NCBI GenBank assembly: GCA_964512105.1
Contig: CAZEGI010000001.1
Coordinates: 40,534 to 104,533, forward strand
Origin: an uncultured archaeon
GTDB taxonomy: Archaea > Altiarchaeota > Altiarchaeia > IMC4 > CAZEGI01
Length of the DNA stretch: 64,000 nt
Reading direction: 5' to 3'
Position 1 is the first letter of the stretch; every line of letters begins with the position of its first letter. The notes below the pieces were generated by a model, which was given only the letters and a program-made list of their open reading frames with translations, made no database searches and had not been told where the DNA came from. Of the stretch, positions 4,160 to 62,690 are shown one piece after another. Both the position numbers and the translations under genes were made by a program.

Positions 4160-6191
4160 ACCGACTGTTGTTGCACTGGTGGTTTTGGTGCTGGTCTGGA
4201 GCTGCAGCGCGGAACTTCTTGAGGAGCGCATCAGTGAGGTGTGGAAGCAGACCATGACGGGCATCGGCACGTTTAATGTCGTAGACCTGGACGACGACGG
4301 CTCGAAGGAGATTTTGGTGGCGTTCAACGACAGTATTTTCGTTTTGAATTCTACGGGGAAGATTGCAAAAAGTTATTTGCTGGGCAACACTTCCGGCAGC
4401 ATATATGCGGTTGATGCGGCGGACATAAACGGCAACGGAAGAAAGGAACTTGTTGTCGGGGTCGGGGGAATGCGGGTGATTAATGAATACGGTTTGTACG
4501 GATTTGAAACTCCGGAAAACAAGAGCATAGTGTGGAAAACGAAGGTTCTGCACGAAACCCTTAACACGCGGGGTTCGATTGTTGTGCTGGATTTGAATGG
4601 AAGCGTGTTGTGGAGCGTTGAAACGAACGATAGCGTGAATGCCTTGGGTGTGTGCGACCTTGACGGCAATGTCCCTAAGGAGATTATCGGCGGTGTCGGG
4701 GATTACGCTGTTGATACGTATAATGAGTACAAAGGTACTGATGCCAACGGGACTGCGGTATGGGAGCTTGTTGATTACCCAAAGCAGGACGGCTGGGTTT
4801 ATGTTTTCAACAGCACCGGTGTTTTGAGGTGGGGTTATAAGTTGAAACTCGTATCCGAGGGTAAAGAGGTTGTTGATGCTGACAATAACGTTAAGCGCCT
4901 GCAACTCGTGGACGTAAATCAGGACGGAATTAATGAGATATTCGCGGGCTCGGACAATGGATGGATTTACCTGCTGAACCGCACGGGGAGCTTGGCATGG
5001 AGTTACGGTTTTGGCGGAGCTATAAAATCTATGTACGCGGGAGATATCAACCGTGATAACAAGAGCGAATTTGTTATCGGCTCTGGGGATAACTACATCA
5101 CTGCCCTTGACAGCGGCAGGAGATTGTTGTGGAGGTATCGCCTTGGGGATTTTCCATCTGCTGTATACGTTACGGATTTCAATCTTGACGAGAGTGAGGA
5201 CATATTAGTGGCATCATGGGACCGCTACATCTACTCGTTTGACAAAACAGGGGGCCTGCAGTGGAAATACTTCGTCGGGGAGCGAATTTATTCCATGTTC
5301 GTAGCGGATATAGACAACGATGGCTACGAAGAGATAATTACTGCATCGCCCAACAACCTTACGGTGTTCAAACTGAACGAGAACTACCTGACGAAACAAC
5401 AGGCGGACAGGTACTACAACAAATCTTTGGCATACTTTGAATCTGCGGATTACGGCATAGCCATAATATACGCGCAAAAGGCAAGGGATTTGTACACGCG
5501 CATAGAGGACGGCACGGGCGTATCCAAGGCAAAGAAGATAATCGATGATGTGGAGCGACAACTCAGATTAGATAGAAAACTGAGCGCCGACGAGAAGTAT
5601 ACAGCGGCTTTGAATTTCTACAGCAAGAGCGAGTACGATACCGCGGAGGTTTATGTAAACTCCGCCAAAAGCATATACAAGGAGATAAACGATGATGAGG
5701 GAGTAGGCAAGTGTGATAAACTGCTCGCAAGGATAGAAAACGAACGCACAGTAAAGCGCAGGATTGATGTTGATGCCGTCTATGCAAAAGCCATGCTCGC
5801 TCTGGACTTCAATAACTACACGGCAGCGAGGGACTATGCACTGGAAGCGAGGGAGGATTACAACAACCTCGGTGCAACAAACGATGCGGAAAAATGCGAC
5901 CTTATAATAAACAGGGTTGGCGAGGCGTATTACGAAACTTCACAGCGCTATTTCAATGAAGCCAATTACACGCGGTCGAGGGAATACTCGCAACTCGCGA
6001 AGGAAACGTTCATGCTCACCAGAAACACCGAGGGTGTAACAAAAGTGGAAATGCTTCTAACGCAGCTTGATGCCGCGGAGACGAGCGAGCAAGAACGGCT
6101 ACCTTCGGAACCGAGCACGCTTCCCTACGTGGTTTTTGCTGTTTTGATTGTCGCCTCTGTGGTGATTGTGGTAAGGAGCTTGAGAAAGTAA
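4152..6191 (+). CDS. Membrane-anchored 7-bladed PQQ/FG-GAP-like beta-propeller protein with four C-terminal Tyr/Ala-rich helical repeats and a C-terminal TM anchor
   Basis: ATG at 4152 overlaps the MoxR stop (ATGTATAA). There is a signal/anchor (MYKPTVVALVVLVLVWSCSA) and seven repeats of DxDxDG..E + G.L.W.Y (VDLDDDGSKEILVAF; VDVNQDGINEIFAGSDNGWIYLLNRTGSLAWSY; and others). Then come four ~50-aa repeats (YYNKSLAYFESADYGIAIIYAQKARDLY...) and a C-terminal TM segment, LPYVVFAVLIVASVVIVV. Confidence 0.6.
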   Translation: MYKPTVVALVVLVLVWSCSAELLEERISEVWKQTMTGIGTFNVVDLDDDGSKEILVAFNDSIFVLNSTGKIAKSYLLGNTSGSIYAVDAADINGNGRKELVVGVGGMRVINEYGLYGFETPENKSIVWKTKVLHETLNTRGSIVVLDLNGSVLWSVETNDSVNALGVCDLDGNVPKEIIGGVGDYAVDTYNEYKGTDANGTAVWELVDYPKQDGWVYVFNSTGVLRWGYKLKLVSEGKEVVDADNNVKRLQLVDVNQDGINEIFAGSDNGWIYLLNRTGSLAWSYGFGGAIKSMYAGDINRDNKSEFVIGSGDNYITALDSGRRLLWRYRLGDFPSAVYVTDFNLDESEDILVASWDRYIYSFDKTGGLQWKYFVGERIYSMFVADIDNDGYEEIITASPNNLTVFKLNENYLTKQQADRYYNKSLAYFESADYGIAIIYAQKARDLYTRIEDGTGVSKAKKIIDDVERQLRLDRKLSADEKYTAALNFYSKSEYDTAEVYVNSAKSIYKEINDDEGVGKCDKLLARIENERTVKRRIDVDAVYAKAMLALDFNNYTAARDYALEAREDYNNLGATNDAEKCDLIINRVGEAYYETSQRYFNEANYTRSREYSQLAKETFMLTRNTEGVTKVEMLLTQLDAAETSEQERLPSEPSTLPYVVFAVLIVASVVIVVRSLRK

Positions 6192-54216: not shown

Positions 54217-54735
54217 ATGGCTGAAGTAATCGCAAAGCGGGGTGACATAACAAAACTAACGGTTGACGCCATAGTGAACCCGGCGAACTCATCCGGAACC
54301 ATGGGCGGTGGCGTTGCTCTGGCGATAAAAAAAGCAGGTGGCGACAGAATCGAGGAGGAAGCAGTAAGGAAATCACCGGTTCCGATTGGTGAAGCGGTTG
54401 CAACAGCGGCAGGAAAACTAAATGCCAAGTTTGTAATACACGCCCCAACCATGGAGAAATCAGCAGAGTTAATAACAACAAAAAACGTGCTTTTGGCAAC
54501 AACGGCGGCACTTAATTGTGCCAAAAATTTAAAAGTAAAAAGCATCGCTTTTCCGGGAATGGGCACGGGCGTTGGCGGCGTCCCGAAAAAACAGGCAGCA
54601 ATTGCGATGGTTAGTGAGATAAACAAATTTGTTAAAAAGAACCCAGACGCGTTTGATGCCGTATTTTTGATAGGATACGATAATTCTTTATACACGGAAT
54701 TCGAAAATGCACTCCGAACCAAAGCCAGGAGATAG
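54217..54735 (+). CDS. Macro-domain protein (ADP-ribose / O-acetyl-ADP-ribose binding, Af1521-like)
   Basis: GDITKLTVDAIVNPANSSGTMGGGVALAIKKAGG and AFPGMGTGVGGVP match the macro domain. Confidence 0.8.
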   Translation: MAEVIAKRGDITKLTVDAIVNPANSSGTMGGGVALAIKKAGGDRIEEEAVRKSPVPIGEAVATAAGKLNAKFVIHAPTMEKSAELITTKNVLLATTAALNCAKNLKVKSIAFPGMGTGVGGVPKKQAAIAMVSEINKFVKKNPDAFDAVFLIGYDNSLYTEFENALRTKARR

Positions 54736-56011
54736 GGTCGAGATTGTAACGGAAAGCGAAACATACCGCGGATTTGTCATGCCGAGGCCGGAGCTTGCGG
54801 GCGACAGACACCTCGTGTTAAAACTTGAGAACGGTTACAACATCGGCATAGAAAAAAACAAAATAAAAAAGATAAACATCATCGAAAAAATAAAAGAGAA
54901 AAAAAATATTGAAAGGGCGGCGGTAAAGGAAGATAAGAATAAAGCAACCGTGTCCGTGCTCTCTACGGGCGGAACAATCTCCTCCCGGGTTGATTACCGT
55001 ACGGGCGGCGTTTATGCGAGCTACACGGCCAAGGATTTGCTTGAGGTCGCCCCAGAACTGAATGACATCGCCAACATAAAATCCCGTTTTTTGATGAATA
55101 TCATGTCCGAAGACATGAACCCGAAACTCTGGATAAAAATTGCAAGGGAAGTTGCTGAAGAACTCAAAAAATCGGATGGCGTTGTCGTCACGCATGGAAC
55201 GGACACCATGCACTATTCGACGGCTGCGGTGAGTTTTTTGCTCAGGGATTTACACAAACCAGTCGTTTTTACCGGTTCTCAACGTTCAACGGACCGTGGT
55301 TCTTCGGATTGTTTCGTCAACCTCATATGTTCAGCGATACTTGCAAAAAGCGACATTGCCGGCGTTTCCTTGGTTATGCACGGATCCTTGAACGATAATT
55401 ATTGTTTTGCGCATCGCGGAACAAAGGTAAGGAAAATGCACACCTCCCGCAGGGACGCGTTCCAGAGCATAAATGATAAACCTTTAGCAAAAATTTATCC
55501 CAGTGGAAAGATAGAGGTGTTGAATAAAAATTATCCAAAAAGAAAAGAAGGTAAGGTAACCGTTGATGATAAATTAGAAGAAAAAGTAGCATTCATAAAA
55601 ATCTACCCAGGAATGAATCCCGAAATAGTGGATTTTTACCTTGGTAAAGGTTACAAAGGCATCGTTTTCGAGGGAACTGCGCTGGGGCACGTTCCTACCA
55701 CCCTAAAGGAAACCAGCATTATACCTAAGATAGAGCTGGCAAAGGACAGAGGTGTTGCAATGGCAATGACAACTCAGTGCCTATTTGGGCGCGTGCACCC
55801 GCACGTCTATGCAAATCTACGCGAGGTCAGTTCCTGTGGCGTGATATATTGCGAGGATATGCTTCCAGAAACAGCCTACGTCAAACTAATGTGGGTTTTA
55901 GGTCATACAAGTAAGTCAGAAGAAGTCAAGAAACTTATGCTGACAAACATTGCGGGCGAAATAACTCCCAGAACGCACATAGACGAAACTATTCTTTCAA
56001 CTTCTTTATGA
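54707..56011 (+). CDS. gatD: Glu-tRNA(Gln) amidotransferase subunit D
   Basis: The N-terminal GatD-specific domain (GDRVEIVTESETYRGFVMP) is followed by an asparaginase fold (VLSTGGTISS, VTHGTDTMHYS). Confidence 0.85.
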   Translation: MHSEPKPGDRVEIVTESETYRGFVMPRPELAGDRHLVLKLENGYNIGIEKNKIKKINIIEKIKEKKNIERAAVKEDKNKATVSVLSTGGTISSRVDYRTGGVYASYTAKDLLEVAPELNDIANIKSRFLMNIMSEDMNPKLWIKIAREVAEELKKSDGVVVTHGTDTMHYSTAAVSFLLRDLHKPVVFTGSQRSTDRGSSDCFVNLICSAILAKSDIAGVSLVMHGSLNDNYCFAHRGTKVRKMHTSRRDAFQSINDKPLAKIYPSGKIEVLNKNYPKRKEGKVTVDDKLEEKVAFIKIYPGMNPEIVDFYLGKGYKGIVFEGTALGHVPTTLKETSIIPKIELAKDRGVAMAMTTQCLFGRVHPHVYANLREVSSCGVIYCEDMLPETAYVKLMWVLGHTSKSEEVKKLMLTNIAGEITPRTHIDETILSTSL

Positions 56012-56285
56012 CCTCTAAAACGTCCTTCAGCGAGTTGTAAATAAGGAACGAATTTCTAAGTCGTTCCGAGTTCGTGTCACCCAGCTCAGTTGACTTACTG
56101 AGCTGCTGATACTGCTCCTCATTAAGCGTCACCATTATCTTCTTTCTCATATCTATCCCCCAGAGCTACTATATATGTATGATATATGTCTGATAACTTA
56201 TAAATGGTAAATATATCTGTAAACGCCAAAATCGGTCATTTACGCCGGAATTTTGACTTATCCTAGCGCTCGATGCATATCGATT

Positions 56286-57437
56286 TTATTTTGCGAGTAA
56301 CCTTCGTGCATTATCCGAAAGGCCGTAAACATACTGGATTCTGCCAGCCCTTTTTTCCTTACTGCAACGTATAACAAGCGGATAAGGCACCCCAGGCTTT
56401 CTTTTTACCTCCTCTGGATTAAGCCCTCGGAGTTTCCTTATCAATGAACCTATGCTCCTGATGTCCTTCCCCAAGACATCCGATAACTCCGTTATGCTCA
56501 TGGATTCACGTTCCATTAACAACTTCACAATTTCGAGTTGCGTCGGGGACAATTCATCAGTAAAATCGCCGCTGGGCACCGCTTTTTCCACTGTTATGCC
56601 TGGGCTTAATTCGGACTCAAAATCCTCCACTTCGGGTTCAATTTTTTCTTCATATGTGTGTGTTCCTAACAACTCCTCCACAACCCTGTCCGTAATCTCA
56701 AATATTTCCCTCTTTGCGCAACCCTCTAAAACGGTCTGGCCGTTCTCCAAAAGAAGTCTCGGAACGCTGTTTGCAGACTCTGCAAGTCGCTTTATGCCGG
56801 CCTCCGTGAATGGTGCGGTCCCCTTACCTTTGACCCACGCTATGCGGTTTTTTACAATTTCAACCAGCTGCTCGGTGGTCAGGGGCTTTAGCGTTATCGT
56901 CCTTGATTTCCTGTCCCTAAACGCGCTCTCAGCGGTAATTCTATCCACCAAACTACTCAGACCGAAGAACATCATAAAGACATTGTCTGCCCTGTCATTC
57001 AGTATCCTGAGCCACTTAAACAACCCGTCATCATATTCATGGGCTTCATCAAACAGGATGAGTAGCCTCTTTTTACCAAGGTTTTTTTGCAGAAAATCGC
57101 CAACAGACGTTCTATCCATATTCCTTGCTGATAAACGTTTCCAAAACGGCAGTGTGCTGATAATTCTTCTCGCAACGTTTTCTTCTGGTTCATATGCGTC
57201 AAATGAGACAACATAGTCTACGCCTATCGGTTTTTTCATCATGATCTGGTTCATAAATGTTGTTTTTCCATAGCCGATAGGTGCAGTAACCACTATTATT
57301 CTATCCCAGCCGCCGACAGATTCGCAAACCTGCCTGTACTCATCAACACGCCCTATTATCGGTATGTCTAAAGAGGTCGATTTTATGAATGGGCTCTTTG
57401 ACCAACCATAATGTACGTAGTACTCGTTTCTGTCCAT
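56286..57437 (-). CDS. AAA+ ATPase (ExeA/AAA_22-like, Orc1-like architecture) with a C-terminal winged-helix domain
   Basis: The N-terminus YYVHYGWSKSPF...IIGRVDEYRQV matches the ExeA pattern. Walker A is VTAPIGYGKTTF and Walker B is LLILFDEAHEY. The C-terminal ITELSDVLGKDIRSIGSLIRKL is wHTH-like. Confidence 0.6.
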   Translation of the reverse strand: MDRNEYYVHYGWSKSPFIKSTSLDIPIIGRVDEYRQVCESVGGWDRIIVVTAPIGYGKTTFMNQIMMKKPIGVDYVVSFDAYEPEENVARRIISTLPFWKRLSARNMDRTSVGDFLQKNLGKKRLLILFDEAHEYDDGLFKWLRILNDRADNVFMMFFGLSSLVDRITAESAFRDRKSRTITLKPLTTEQLVEIVKNRIAWVKGKGTAPFTEAGIKRLAESANSVPRLLLENGQTVLEGCAKREIFEITDRVVEELLGTHTYEEKIEPEVEDFESELSPGITVEKAVPSGDFTDELSPTQLEIVKLLMERESMSITELSDVLGKDIRSIGSLIRKLRGLNPEEVKRKPGVPYPLVIRCSKEKRAGRIQYVYGLSDNARRLLAK

Positions 57438-57583
57438 TTCAAGTCACAAAAATAATTCACATGACTTACATCTAAATATACTCGTTGCAATTTAAAAATA
57501 AACCGTGTTTTTGCAATGAAAGTAAGTCATAATACTAAGTCAAAGTAAGTCACAAAGATACGTCATGACTTACTTTTATTTTT
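57438..57583. promoter_or_regulatory. Repeat-dense intergenic region: AAGTCA-N15-TGACTT; AGTAAGTCA (x2), TAAGTCA, and the perfect 9-bp inverted repeat AGTAAGTCA-N13-TGACTTACT; the stretch between is AT-rich with TTGCAA boxes
   Basis: Read directly: 57521-57529, 57536-57542, 57544-57552 and 57566-57574. The same 9-mer TGACTTACT also sits at 56091-56099 on the far side of the ATPase gene. Confidence 0.7.
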
Positions 57584-57613
57584 ATGTTACAAATCTTTAG
57601 AAATAACTGGAAA

Positions 57614-58870
57614 ATGTTAGTCGGAATAGACGACACGGATTCATTAAAGGGAATGTGCACAACGTATCTGGCTGCAATAATATCGCGAGAGTTGGATGTT
57701 TATGGCTATCCGCGTCTTATACGGCTAAACCCAAACATCCCATACAAGACACGCGGCAATGGCGCAGTTATGCTGAATATCAACGGGAATTCCAGAACAA
57801 TAAAGAGCACGGTTTTAAAACTCGTCAAGAAACTATCACAACTGGATGATAAAAAAACCAACCCCGGAGTAGTTTTTCTCGAAAATCCAGAAAAAGAAAA
57901 AATAAAAATTCTGAACAATTTTTACAGGCGGGTGGTTTCCGAACTTGTGACAATCAGGGATGCGGAGAACGTTGCAGAAAAGGTTAATGCAGACGTCCAC
58001 AAATTCAAAAACGGAAGAGGAATCATCGGCGCTCTGGCAGCAATCGGCGCAGTTCTTGATGATAAGACCTACGAAATGATAGGGTATCGTCATCCGAATA
58101 ACTACGGAAAGGCCCGCAGAATTGATAGGGAATCTGTTTATAAAATGAACGAGAAATTCTATCCAAAACTGTTCGATACCATCGACCCGGAAACAAAGCG
58201 CATCCTGATAACGCCGCGCGGCTATGATCCGATCTTATTCGGAATCCGTGGCGAAGACCCAAAAGAACTCGAGTCTGCGTTCAGGCAACTTAAAATTTAC
58301 GAACCTCTTGAACTAAAACTGATTTTTGAAACAAACCAGGCAACCGACTCCCACCTCAGAAAAAAGAAAATAACCGACATTAAACCGTACGATTGTGTTA
58401 TCGTTGACGGGCATATTACACAAAAACCAAAAACGCTAGAAGGCGGCCATGTGGTTTTTAATATCCAGGACTCATCAACAAACATGGATTGTGCTGCCTA
58501 CGAACCAACAGGCGGGTTTAGGGACATCGTGAAACAGTTGGAAGTGGGGGATTACGTGGAAGCATGCGGGGGCGTCGGCAAATACAAAAAAACAATCAAT
58601 CTCGAAAAAATCAGAATTTTGGAACTGAACAAAAAATACGAAAATGTAGTGCCTAACTGCTGCAACAAAAAAATGACCTCCGCCGGAAAAAACAAGGGCT
58701 ACAAGTGCAGAAAATGCGGTAAACGAATACGGAGTCATGAAATTAAGTCAAGAGAAGTCAGGAGAAATCTTGAACTTAGGAGTTATGAAGTTCCGCCGCG
58801 GGCGAGAAGACACCTAAGCAAACCGCTCGTGAGGGAATCACTTCAATCTTCTAATCAACTCCTCTTTTGA
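57614..58870 (+). CDS. tiaS: tRNA(Ile2) 2-agmatinylcytidine synthetase
   Basis: The N-terminus MLVGIDDTDSLKGMCTTYLAA is the TiaS hallmark. There is a C-terminal Zn ribbon (CRKCGKRI). Confidence 0.8.
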   Translation: MLVGIDDTDSLKGMCTTYLAAIISRELDVYGYPRLIRLNPNIPYKTRGNGAVMLNINGNSRTIKSTVLKLVKKLSQLDDKKTNPGVVFLENPEKEKIKILNNFYRRVVSELVTIRDAENVAEKVNADVHKFKNGRGIIGALAAIGAVLDDKTYEMIGYRHPNNYGKARRIDRESVYKMNEKFYPKLFDTIDPETKRILITPRGYDPILFGIRGEDPKELESAFRQLKIYEPLELKLIFETNQATDSHLRKKKITDIKPYDCVIVDGHITQKPKTLEGGHVVFNIQDSSTNMDCAAYEPTGGFRDIVKQLEVGDYVEACGGVGKYKKTINLEKIRILELNKKYENVVPNCCNKKMTSAGKNKGYKCRKCGKRIRSHEIKSREVRRNLELRSYEVPPRARRHLSKPLVRESLQSSNQLLF

Positions 58871-61919: not shown

Positions 61920-62167
61920 TTCCTCAATGCCTGCTCTATCCTAGCCCTATCGAATCCGACCACAATCTCGCCAGCAATATCCAAAACCGGAACACCGAGC
62001 TGCCCACTCTTCTCCACCATCTCGCGTGCGGCCTCCTGGTCTTCCGCGACGTTTATCTCCTCAAAGGCCACGCCGCCCTTTTTCAGATACTCTTTTGCCA
62101 TGGTGCAGTACGGACACGTTGGTGTTGAGTAAACAATAACTTTTTTTCCAGCCATTTTACCCCCCAA
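61916..62167 (-). CDS. grx: Glutaredoxin
   Basis: KKVIVYSTPTCPYCTMAKEYL...GVPVL is the classic CPYC glutaredoxin fold. Confidence 0.8.
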   Translation of the reverse strand: MGGKMAGKKVIVYSTPTCPYCTMAKEYLKKGGVAFEEINVAEDQEAAREMVEKSGQLGVPVLDIAGEIVVGFDRARIEQALRK

Positions 62168-62654
62168 CCGTTATCTTTGGCAAATCCATAACCTTATCTG
62201 CCGGCACCATAAACTCCGAATCGTCTATCGCTGTTTCTTCGCAACTCACCCGTGTTTTGTCCATCGCTTTTACGTCCTCCTCCGAAACAAAACCCTGCTC
62301 ACCAGCCGTTTTAATGTCATAGCTCATTCTTATCCATTTGTCTGTTCTGCTCATGTAAATATACAGATATTCACCATCGACGACGCCCCTAACAATGACC
62401 CCCCCAATCGTTCCATCATATCTCACTCGGTTGCCCTTAACCTTCATCTCCATCGTTCCGTCATCCACTTTTACATCGCACTTATACGAACCGCTAGCAA
62501 AAACATCCCCAGAACTTACGGTAGAACTCTCCTTGACTGTCGTTTGAGCCAAGGTCGTCTGGATGCTTGTGGTTTCTTCCTCTTTTGTCTCTGCGATGCA
62601 ACCAACCGCAAAAATACAAATTAGGACTAAAATAAAAACTAATGCTTTTTTCAT
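62157..62654 (-). CDS. Hypothetical secreted / lipoprotein-like protein
   Basis: Start MKKALVFILVLICIFAVGCIAE (signal peptide with Cys). The mature part is Thr/Ser-rich. No family recognised. Confidence 0.4.
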   Translation of the reverse strand: MKKALVFILVLICIFAVGCIAETKEEETTSIQTTLAQTTVKESSTVSSGDVFASGSYKCDVKVDDGTMEMKVKGNRVRYDGTIGGVIVRGVVDGEYLYIYMSRTDKWIRMSYDIKTAGEQGFVSEEDVKAMDKTRVSCEETAIDDSEFMVPADKVMDLPKITVGG

Positions 62655-62690
62655 GCCATTATCTAATACCCGAATAAACATAAAAGCAAG

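Follow-up and report, generated by a model that had tools for sequence, protein, structure and literature searches.

A conserved array of TAAGTCA boxes at an AAA+/winged-helix ATPase gene of Altiarchaeota: candidate operator of a self-regulating protein

Introduction

In a 64-kb stretch of DNA from an Altiarchaeota archaeon (hereafter the window), a gene for an AAA+ ATPase with a C-terminal winged helix is bracketed by copies of a short repeat, TAAGTCA, which raises the question of what such an arrangement is for. An earlier note on this DNA had proposed an operator for the winged helix, a replication origin of the archaeal Orc1 type or a small mobile cassette. The ATPase gene lies between tiaS, its divergent neighbor, and a gene for a 53-amino-acid protein (small53), on which gatD converges. 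Altiarchaeota are abundant, uncultured subsurface carbon fixers, and to our knowledge no replication origin, initiator or transcription factor has been characterized for them. A literature search retrieved no paper on the ATPase family, the TAAGTCA box or an Altiarchaeota origin. The boxes are read here, with slightly less than even confidence, as binding sites of the encoded ATPase, and the locus as a possible self-regulating nucleoprotein switch with an operator array. The ATPase is probably a site-specific DNA-binding AAA+/winged-helix protein with a cognate array, in an architecture related to Orc1/Cdc6 and its origin recognition box (ORB) and to the uncharacterized PF01637 proteins.

Conservation of the boxes across Altiarchaeota

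The strongest evidence comes from conservation. Fifteen non-redundant tiaS/ATPase intergenic regions (132-370 bp, GC 0.20-0.34) contain 80 exact AAGTCA cores in 3457 bp versus 2.0 from shuffles, an approximately 40-fold excess, and the density is 23 per kb, whereas the other 216 kb of these loci have 0.47 per kb. Among the hexamers of the pooled regions AAGTCA ranks first, and each of the 15 has two or more copies, within a box of consensus aaaR-TAAGTCA-yR. The proteins flanking the array are only 45-65% identical among these genomes. Because the boxes are conserved in 15 loci, their occurrence by chance is ruled out.

In the window, AGTAAGTCA/TGACTTACT has five exact matches (0.36 expected; none of 100 shuffles reached five), all within 55910-57574, at 55910(+), 56091(-), 57521(+), 57544(+) and 57566(-). 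The 7-mer TAAGTCA occurs 11 times versus 6.15 expected, with eight copies between 55912 and 58750. The repeats listed in the earlier note are all present: AAGTCA-N15-TGACTT at 57441-57467, the run AGTAAGTCA, CTAAGTCA, AGTAAGTCA, the inverted repeat AGTAAGTCA-N13-TGACTTACT, TGACTTACT at 56091-56099 and TGACTTA at 56254-56260. Its TTGCAA boxes also exist in the window (57485, 57511) but are not conserved, with a single copy in one other locus and none in the rest. The intergenic region and the boxes of the window are as follows.

57438-57613: divergent intergenic region between tiaS and the ATPase gene, 176 bp, GC 0.26, contains the box array
57441-57469: proximal inverted pair, AAGTCA (57441-57446), N15, TGACTTAC (57462-57469)
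57491-57504, minus strand: TATA/BRE (B recognition element)-like element GGTTTATTTTTAAA, within the AT-rich spacer
57521-57574: distal array, four plus-strand boxes followed by one on the minus strand; AGTAAGTCA 57521-57529, CTAAGTCA 57535-57542, AGTAAGTCA 57544-57552 and the degenerate TACGTCA 57559-57565, all plus, the last abutting TGACTTACT 57566-57574 (box on minus)
56254-56260, minus strand: single TAAGTCA box (TGACTTA on the top strand), between the stop codon of the ATPase gene and the start of small53
56091-56099, minus strand: AGTAAGTCA box inside small53, encodes S-K-S
55910-55928, plus strand: boxes inside the 3' end of gatD, AGTAAGTCA 55910-55918 and AAGTCA 55923-55928
58744-58750, plus strand: TAAGTCA box inside the 3' part of tiaS, in the variable loop of the Zn ribbon

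Most of the 15 regions share one plan in the direction of the ATPase gene, consisting of a distal array, an AT-rich spacer and a proximal inverted pair. In the distal array, one to three boxes in one direction are followed by two or three reversed ones; this head-to-head arrangement is kept in 15 loci, and 13 bp is the commonest spacing between boxes (16 of 65 intervals). The spacer of 50-100 bp carries a TATA-like element, TTTTTA(T/A), at -57 to -74 in 11 of the 15 loci, and GGTTTATTTTTAAA is presumably the promoter element of the ATPase gene in the window. In most loci the two boxes of the proximal pair are separated by 2-15 nt, often 21 bp from core to core, and the pair ends 9-18 nt before the ATG, between the TATA-like box (around -60) and the ATPase ATG, that is, over the predicted promoter; in the others it is degenerate or lacks exact cores. 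The pair of the window, located 4-32 nt upstream of the ATPase ATG, is a candidate auto-operator.

Further boxes lie outside the intergenic region. In most loci the small53 stop codon overlaps, or is closely followed by, one to three boxes in the gap toward the convergent gatD; in two of these loci (L004 and L009) the boxes form the palindrome TAAGTCATGACTTA. In the window the equivalents are shifted into coding sequence, at 56091 in small53 and 55910/55923 in gatD. A box right at or after the ATPase stop, as at 56254 in the window, is likewise found in L011 and L017. Within tiaS, six of 14 loci carry boxes in the 3' part, in the variable loop of the Zn ribbon, at roughly matching alignment columns (373-380). 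These boxes fall in two reading frames, encoding V/I-S-Q/H in five loci and I-K-S in the window (58744), and this combination of shared columns with different frames suggests selection on the DNA sequence within the coding region. Three loci (L010, L011 and L012) have two tiaS 3' boxes 21 nt apart. Two other occurrences are probably coding coincidences: AAGTCA at about codon 178 of the ATPase gene (RKS of an invariant RDRKS motif) and AAGTCA in the "LEVIKK" stretch of small53. As a separate observation, the box at 56091-56099 centers a perfect 24-bp palindrome at 56082-56105, CAGCTCAGT-TGACTT-ACTGAGCTG; no such palindrome was noticed at the matching position of other loci. A scan with Rfam and for bacterial-type promoters and terminators gave nothing relevant.

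The encoded ATPase

56286-57437, minus strand: ATPase gene, 383 amino acids, ExeA-like AAA_22 domain and C-terminal winged helix

The earlier note had described this protein as an ExeA/Orc1-like ATPase with AAA+ and winged-helix parts; domain searches and modeling bear out these two parts. Pfam assigns AAA_22 at 36.7 bits (cut-off 27) and AAA_14 at 29.4, and the C-terminus has matches to HVO_A0114 (26.4 bits, cut-off 27.6), HTH_5 and HTH_20, all below cut-offs. In an AF2 model (pLDDT 87), three helices separate beta2 from beta3 in the AAA+ base; the other parts are a lid, a disordered linker (260-289) and a winged helix-turn-helix (wHTH) with a long beta wing. The wHTH, three helices and a beta hairpin at residues 298-373, has pLDDT >90 over most of the domain. 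The C-terminal domain also matches ArsR, Lrs14, Sta1 and Csa3-type regulators weakly. A defense system was considered and rejected, because PADLOC gave only weak Csa3-type wHTH matches.

The ATPase gene is present in all sampled Altiarchaeota. Databases contain 74 full-length homologs, 50-61% identical, and those that are named belong to Candidatus Altiarchaeota or Altiarchaeales, except one "Methanobacteriota archaeon" and one "uncultured archaeon"; contig titles give Altiarchaeota for most loci. The family alignment displays a nearly invariant N-terminal YYxxxGWxKSPFIKSTS, a Walker A motif APIGYGKTT, a Walker B motif FDEAQDY and an invariant RDR motif, followed by a variable acidic linker. 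The winged helix is nearly invariant (LSPTQ...DIRSxGSLIRKLRGL...RKPxVPYP...QYVYxLSD), including the recognition helix DIRSxGSLIRKLRGL, matching the invariance of the box.

AAA_22 above its cut-off and an N-terminal aromatic-G-[LW]-x3-PF motif, which we take to be the ExeA hallmark, place the protein with ExeA/GspA-like ATPases (COG3267), and IMG labels several homologs "ExeA". Neither a type II secretion context nor a peptidoglycan-binding C-terminus was found, the C-terminus being a wHTH and the neighbors tiaS, gatD and nrdD. The likeness to Orc1 proposed in the earlier note extends to the fold but not to the sequence. An AAA+ fold of the initiator clade is followed by a C-terminal winged helix, and comparison of the AF2 model ranks Drosophila Cdc6 (18.2), Aeropyrum ORC2 (17.5) and yeast Cdc6 (16.6) before PAB2304 (2qen, 16.3), TnsC (15.8) and MuB (15.7), so that the modeled fold appears narrowly nearest to Cdc6/Orc1. 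Cdc6_C is absent from the Pfam matches of the ATPase (E at or below 0.01) and TIGR02928 from its NCBIfam matches (E at or below 1), and neither the single sequence nor the family profile found a solved Orc1/Cdc6 chain in the PDB (E at or below 1). By these sequence tests, the ATPase is not an Orc1/Cdc6.

Distant homologs and their repeats

A profile search of 1.84 billion representatives returned 8264 relatives at E at or below 1e-3. About eight of these are the Altiarchaeota family, and the rest form a continuum of proteins of 340-400 amino acids with a common N-terminus, GWxxNPF; the few that are named are called "AAA family ATPase" (Nanoarchaeia, Jingweiarchaeum) or "ExeA". Pfam scans of 63 relatives gave AAA_22 in all and ATPase_2 (PF01637) in 41, with winged helices of the Penicillinase_R, HTH_24 or TrmB type in many. 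The 25 Pfam families matched most often in these 63, out of 86 matched, do not include Cdc6_C.

Repeats were also found upstream of distant homologs. In locus L027 (contig CAZVAJ010000011.1), the homolog P0170, 24% identical over its full length, is preceded by a gene-free region of 1045 bp with 23 copies of T(T)AGTCA (4640-4950) at 10-11-bp spacing. The copies form two blocks with an A-rich spacer between them, followed by a TATA box and the ATG, an array that looks like an iteron-type origin or centromere. The L027 core, TTAGTCA, is almost the same as the TAAGTCA of the window, and this locus is without small53. An integrase gene and a TraB-like gene lie nearby. Upstream of P0084 (L022), a 720-bp region carries 13 TCACA cores, enriched 19-58-fold; a Nanoarchaeia locus (L023) has two GACA-N4-TGTC palindromes directly after a TATA box, and L028 has three copies of ATCATACAA within 90 bp upstream. 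A further full-length homolog, P0079 (29% identical), lies at the end of a 22.4-kb contig (L026, the same as L019; Logan SRR28370467_99151) with co-directional small hypothetical genes and genes for an SNase, DUF6876, DUF3800 and a serine resolvase, and this contig resembles a mobile element. The sample that yielded it also yielded a chromosomal Altiarchaeota copy, L020. Small open reading frames (ORFs) downstream of distant homologs are unrelated to small53. Because the distant homologs carry repeats of their own upstream, every family member examined seems to bind DNA ahead of its own gene. Across the family the number of boxes varies from two or three, as in operators, to 13-23, as in origins or centromeres, with the Altiarchaeota array intermediate.

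Copies of another repeat, TGTGAGAG (AACTCTCACA when read on the opposite strand), are dispersed over L027 (4100-4570) and L022 (5290-5530), in the distal portion of the long regions that precede two unrelated distant homologs; this repeat may be the site of another factor.

A candidate self-regulating switch

How the boxes would act is proposed as follows. The winged helix would read the box (aaaR-TAAGTCA-yR). The proximal pair would lie over the start of the ATPase/small53 transcript, and its occupancy would block transcription, resulting in autorepression; the position of a repressor site is suggested because the pair is downstream of the TATA-like box. The distal head-to-head array, just upstream of the predicted ATPase promoter and beside that of tiaS, would nucleate an ATP-dependent AAA+ oligomer, as the 13-bp spacing together with the AAA+ domain suggests. 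DNA looping could bring in the outlying boxes located after small53 and within tiaS. The boxes, where they lie, how they are conserved and which domains the protein has are shown here; we infer the identity of the binder, the sign of regulation, oligomerization and looping from position and conservation.

The operator proposed in the earlier note is the best-supported reading of the locus. The protein has the wHTH of autoregulated winged-helix factors, the proximal pair lies between the TATA-like box and the ATG, and distant homologs at 24-29% identity, without small53, keep repeats directly upstream of their own genes, at their own promoters. Several points weigh on the other side. The five to eight boxes, with outliers 1.3-1.5 kb away on both sides, probably exceed the need of a simple autoregulator, and the 13-23 boxes that homologs carry in gene-free regions of 0.7-1 kb look like origins or centromeres, not operators. 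Moreover, no other box target was found in about 280 kb of Altiarchaeota DNA. The AAA+ protein is also phylum-wide, single-copy and rigidly syntenic and evolves at a rate as low as that of gatD and tiaS, which suggests that it has a housekeeping role in addition to controlling itself.

The locus couples a named protein to an unambiguous, phylum-conserved DNA motif, so that direct in vitro testing is possible. Even if it were an autoregulator only, it would provide the first cognate DNA site for the dark-matter group labeled "archaeal AAA+ ATPase with winged helix" (AAA_22/PF01637).

The origin question

The same boxes could instead mark a chromosomal replication origin, with the ATPase as a non-canonical, ExeA-like initiator comparable to Orc1/Cdc6 or to an iteron-binding Rep, an explanation that we consider unlikely but the most serious of the alternatives. 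In that case the distal array would serve for loading the helicase at the AT-rich spacer and the proximal pair for autoregulation of the initiator gene, as for dnaA and in iteron plasmids. The layout does resemble that of iteron/Rep systems and dnaA, and the large arrays of the homologs and their mobile-element contexts are the strongest arguments for it. Inverted boxes do flank an AT-rich spacer, but the box is not ORB-like, the spacer also contains a candidate promoter, and the region, at 132-370 bp, is short; the failed sequence tests for Orc1/Cdc6 membership also count against an initiator.

Strand composition gives no clear signal. Both GC skew and AT skew in the window closely track the coding strand (sense strands are purine-rich), so raw cumulative skew reflects gene orientation, not replication. 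Skew at 4-fold degenerate sites was regressed on gene orientation and on the side of the locus, using 284 genes from 14 loci with flanks of about 10 kb. With flanks of only this length, no skew signal was found at the locus: the pooled side term for GC skew was -0.008 +/- 0.011, and the side terms for AT skew differed in sign between genomes, with no consistent switch.

Published data on Altiarchaeota add little. A literature search for an Orc1/Cdc6 or an origin in this phylum found nothing usable, and a core-gene table (PMC12133352) that names no Orc1/Cdc6 is uninformative because it also omits MCM, tiaS and gatD. In a wider survey, Orc1/Cdc6 was reported from all archaea examined except Methanococcales and Methanopyrales (Raymann et al.; PMC3914693). 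That Altiarchaeota and those related uncultured archaea whose homologs have 13-23-box arrays start chromosome or plasmid replication through an ExeA-like initiator acting on T(A/T)AGTCA, with the tiaS/ATPase gap as oriC, is in our view distinctly improbable; if true, oriC would be set by a cellular initiator family distinct from Orc1/Cdc6 and DnaA. An origin at this locus would imply a new kind of cellular initiator and would bear on lineages that do without canonical Orc1/Cdc6.

small53 as a possible reader of the boxes

55989-56150, minus strand: small53 (53-amino-acid gene), just downstream of the ATPase gene

The gene follows the ATPase gene in all 13 further loci of sufficient extent, where it is 46-75% identical, and 33 database clusters are 67-85% identical to the window copy, the named ones from Altiarchaeota or an "uncultured archaeon". 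On this record, it is a real gene, and it is more conserved than the ATPase. It is possibly a ribbon-helix-helix (RHH) partner: its sequence fits the RHH pattern of an N-terminal basic strand (KKIMVTL) and two helices with a G-x-[TSD] turn between them, and the AF2 model of the monomer has an extended N-terminus and two helices (pLDDT 75). One member has a weak RHH_3 match (E 0.2), but no Pfam, PDB-profile or Foldseek match supports an RHH fold for small53.

If small53 were an RHH protein, it could itself read the boxes, with the ATPase as its motor partner, in a partition-type arrangement with a centromere and operator array like those of SegB, ParR or Omega. Arrays bound by RHH proteins typically consist of short boxes with mixed orientations and a near-helical spacing, which speaks for this explanation together with the sequence pattern and the higher conservation of small53. 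We nevertheless consider it very improbable: fold support is lacking in the searches above, the ATPase is an AAA+ protein with its own wHTH and not of the ParA, ParM or TubZ type, and L027 has the same TWAGTCA core without small53. Because L027 keeps a near-identical core in this way, the comparison points to the ATPase rather than small53 as the reader of the boxes.

Synteny and the mobile-cassette proposal

57614-58870, plus strand: tiaS (tRNA-Ile2 agmatidine synthetase), Pfam TiaS_FLD, TiaS_TCKD and Zn_ribbon_TiaS
54707-56011: gatD, converges on small53

The gene call of tiaS starts at 57614, at the edge of the intergenic region that it has in common with the ATPase gene. The order tiaS, ATPase gene, small53, gatD, with tiaS divergent and gatD convergent, is unchanged wherever the locus extends far enough (15 genomes), although the ATPases of these genomes are only 50-61% identical. 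The earlier note had suggested that matching boxes on both sides of the gene might be the ends of a mobile cassette of about 1.5 kb. Boxes in inverted orientation do flank the ATPase/small53 pair, and AAA_22 ATPases include the transposition proteins TniB, TnsC and MuB, but an insertion context identical in 15 divergent genomes leads us to reject the cassette, which is scarcely credible as an active element. There is no transposase, integrase or other recombinase at the locus, and no relatives were found in viral contigs or in phage or plasmid collections.

Comparison with known systems

Orc1/Cdc6 with ORB or mini-ORB elements is the best structural match, with an AAA+ base, a lid and a C-terminal winged helix in about 380 amino acids, and with a gene that points away from an adjoining AT-rich region between short inverted boxes. 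The ATPase differs in lacking membership at the sequence level and in having an ExeA-type N-terminal motif; moreover, TAAGTCA is unrelated to the ORB consensus, and the region is much shorter than known oriCs. Sulfolobus Orc1-2, an Orc1/Cdc6 paralog reported to act as a transcription regulator (PMC6061795), offers a parallel: a protein of initiator type, with AAA+ and winged-helix domains, recognizes a short motif in promoters and governs transcription, not replication. Orc1-2 is a true Orc1/Cdc6 member with a genome-wide regulon, whereas candidate sites of the ATPase are seen only at its own locus.

Iteron plasmids have a matching layout, in which repeats arrayed in phase are combined with an AT-rich stretch and with an inverted repeat at the promoter of the initiator itself. 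Their Rep proteins have tandem winged helices and no AAA+ domain, and iterons are direct repeats of 17-22 bp, unlike the ATPase locus, which is also chromosomal and syntenic. Among archaeal AAA+/wHTH proteins of the ATPase_2 family (PF01637), which occur as many paralogs, we know of no assigned function and no DNA sites for PAB2304 (2qen) or SSO1545 (2fna); the ATPase of the window differs in being single-copy and syntenic, with an obvious cognate array. From ExeA/GspA, TniB/TnsC and MuB it is distinguished by the absence of a secretion or transposition context at the window locus and by a winged helix, predicted to be sequence-specific, in place of peptidoglycan-binding or transposase-interaction modules.

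Neighboring genes and contig ends

The further neighbors in the window are housekeeping genes, among them a thioredoxin-like gene, nrdD and tctA, as well as those encoding Sua5, CutA, QRPTase, a Macro-domain protein and a Band-7 protein. The 3' ends of two convergent gene pairs overlap, by 23 bp for gatD and small53 (55989-56011) and by 33 bp for tiaS and the thioredoxin-like gene (58838-58870). Two ORFs without a Pfam match, listed here, each received a gene call in further assemblies of this organism (L024, L025).

62157-62681, minus strand: ORF of 174 amino acids
53017-53454, plus strand: ORF of 145 amino acids

These two independent assemblies (49-kb and 117-kb contigs) stop about 1.1 kb past tctA (near position 65000, shortly after the window ends), and other assemblies of the organism appear to stop near that point too. 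A repeat or strain-variable region may lie near the contig ends past tctA. Several long contigs of other genomes place the locus 3-25 kb from a contig end.

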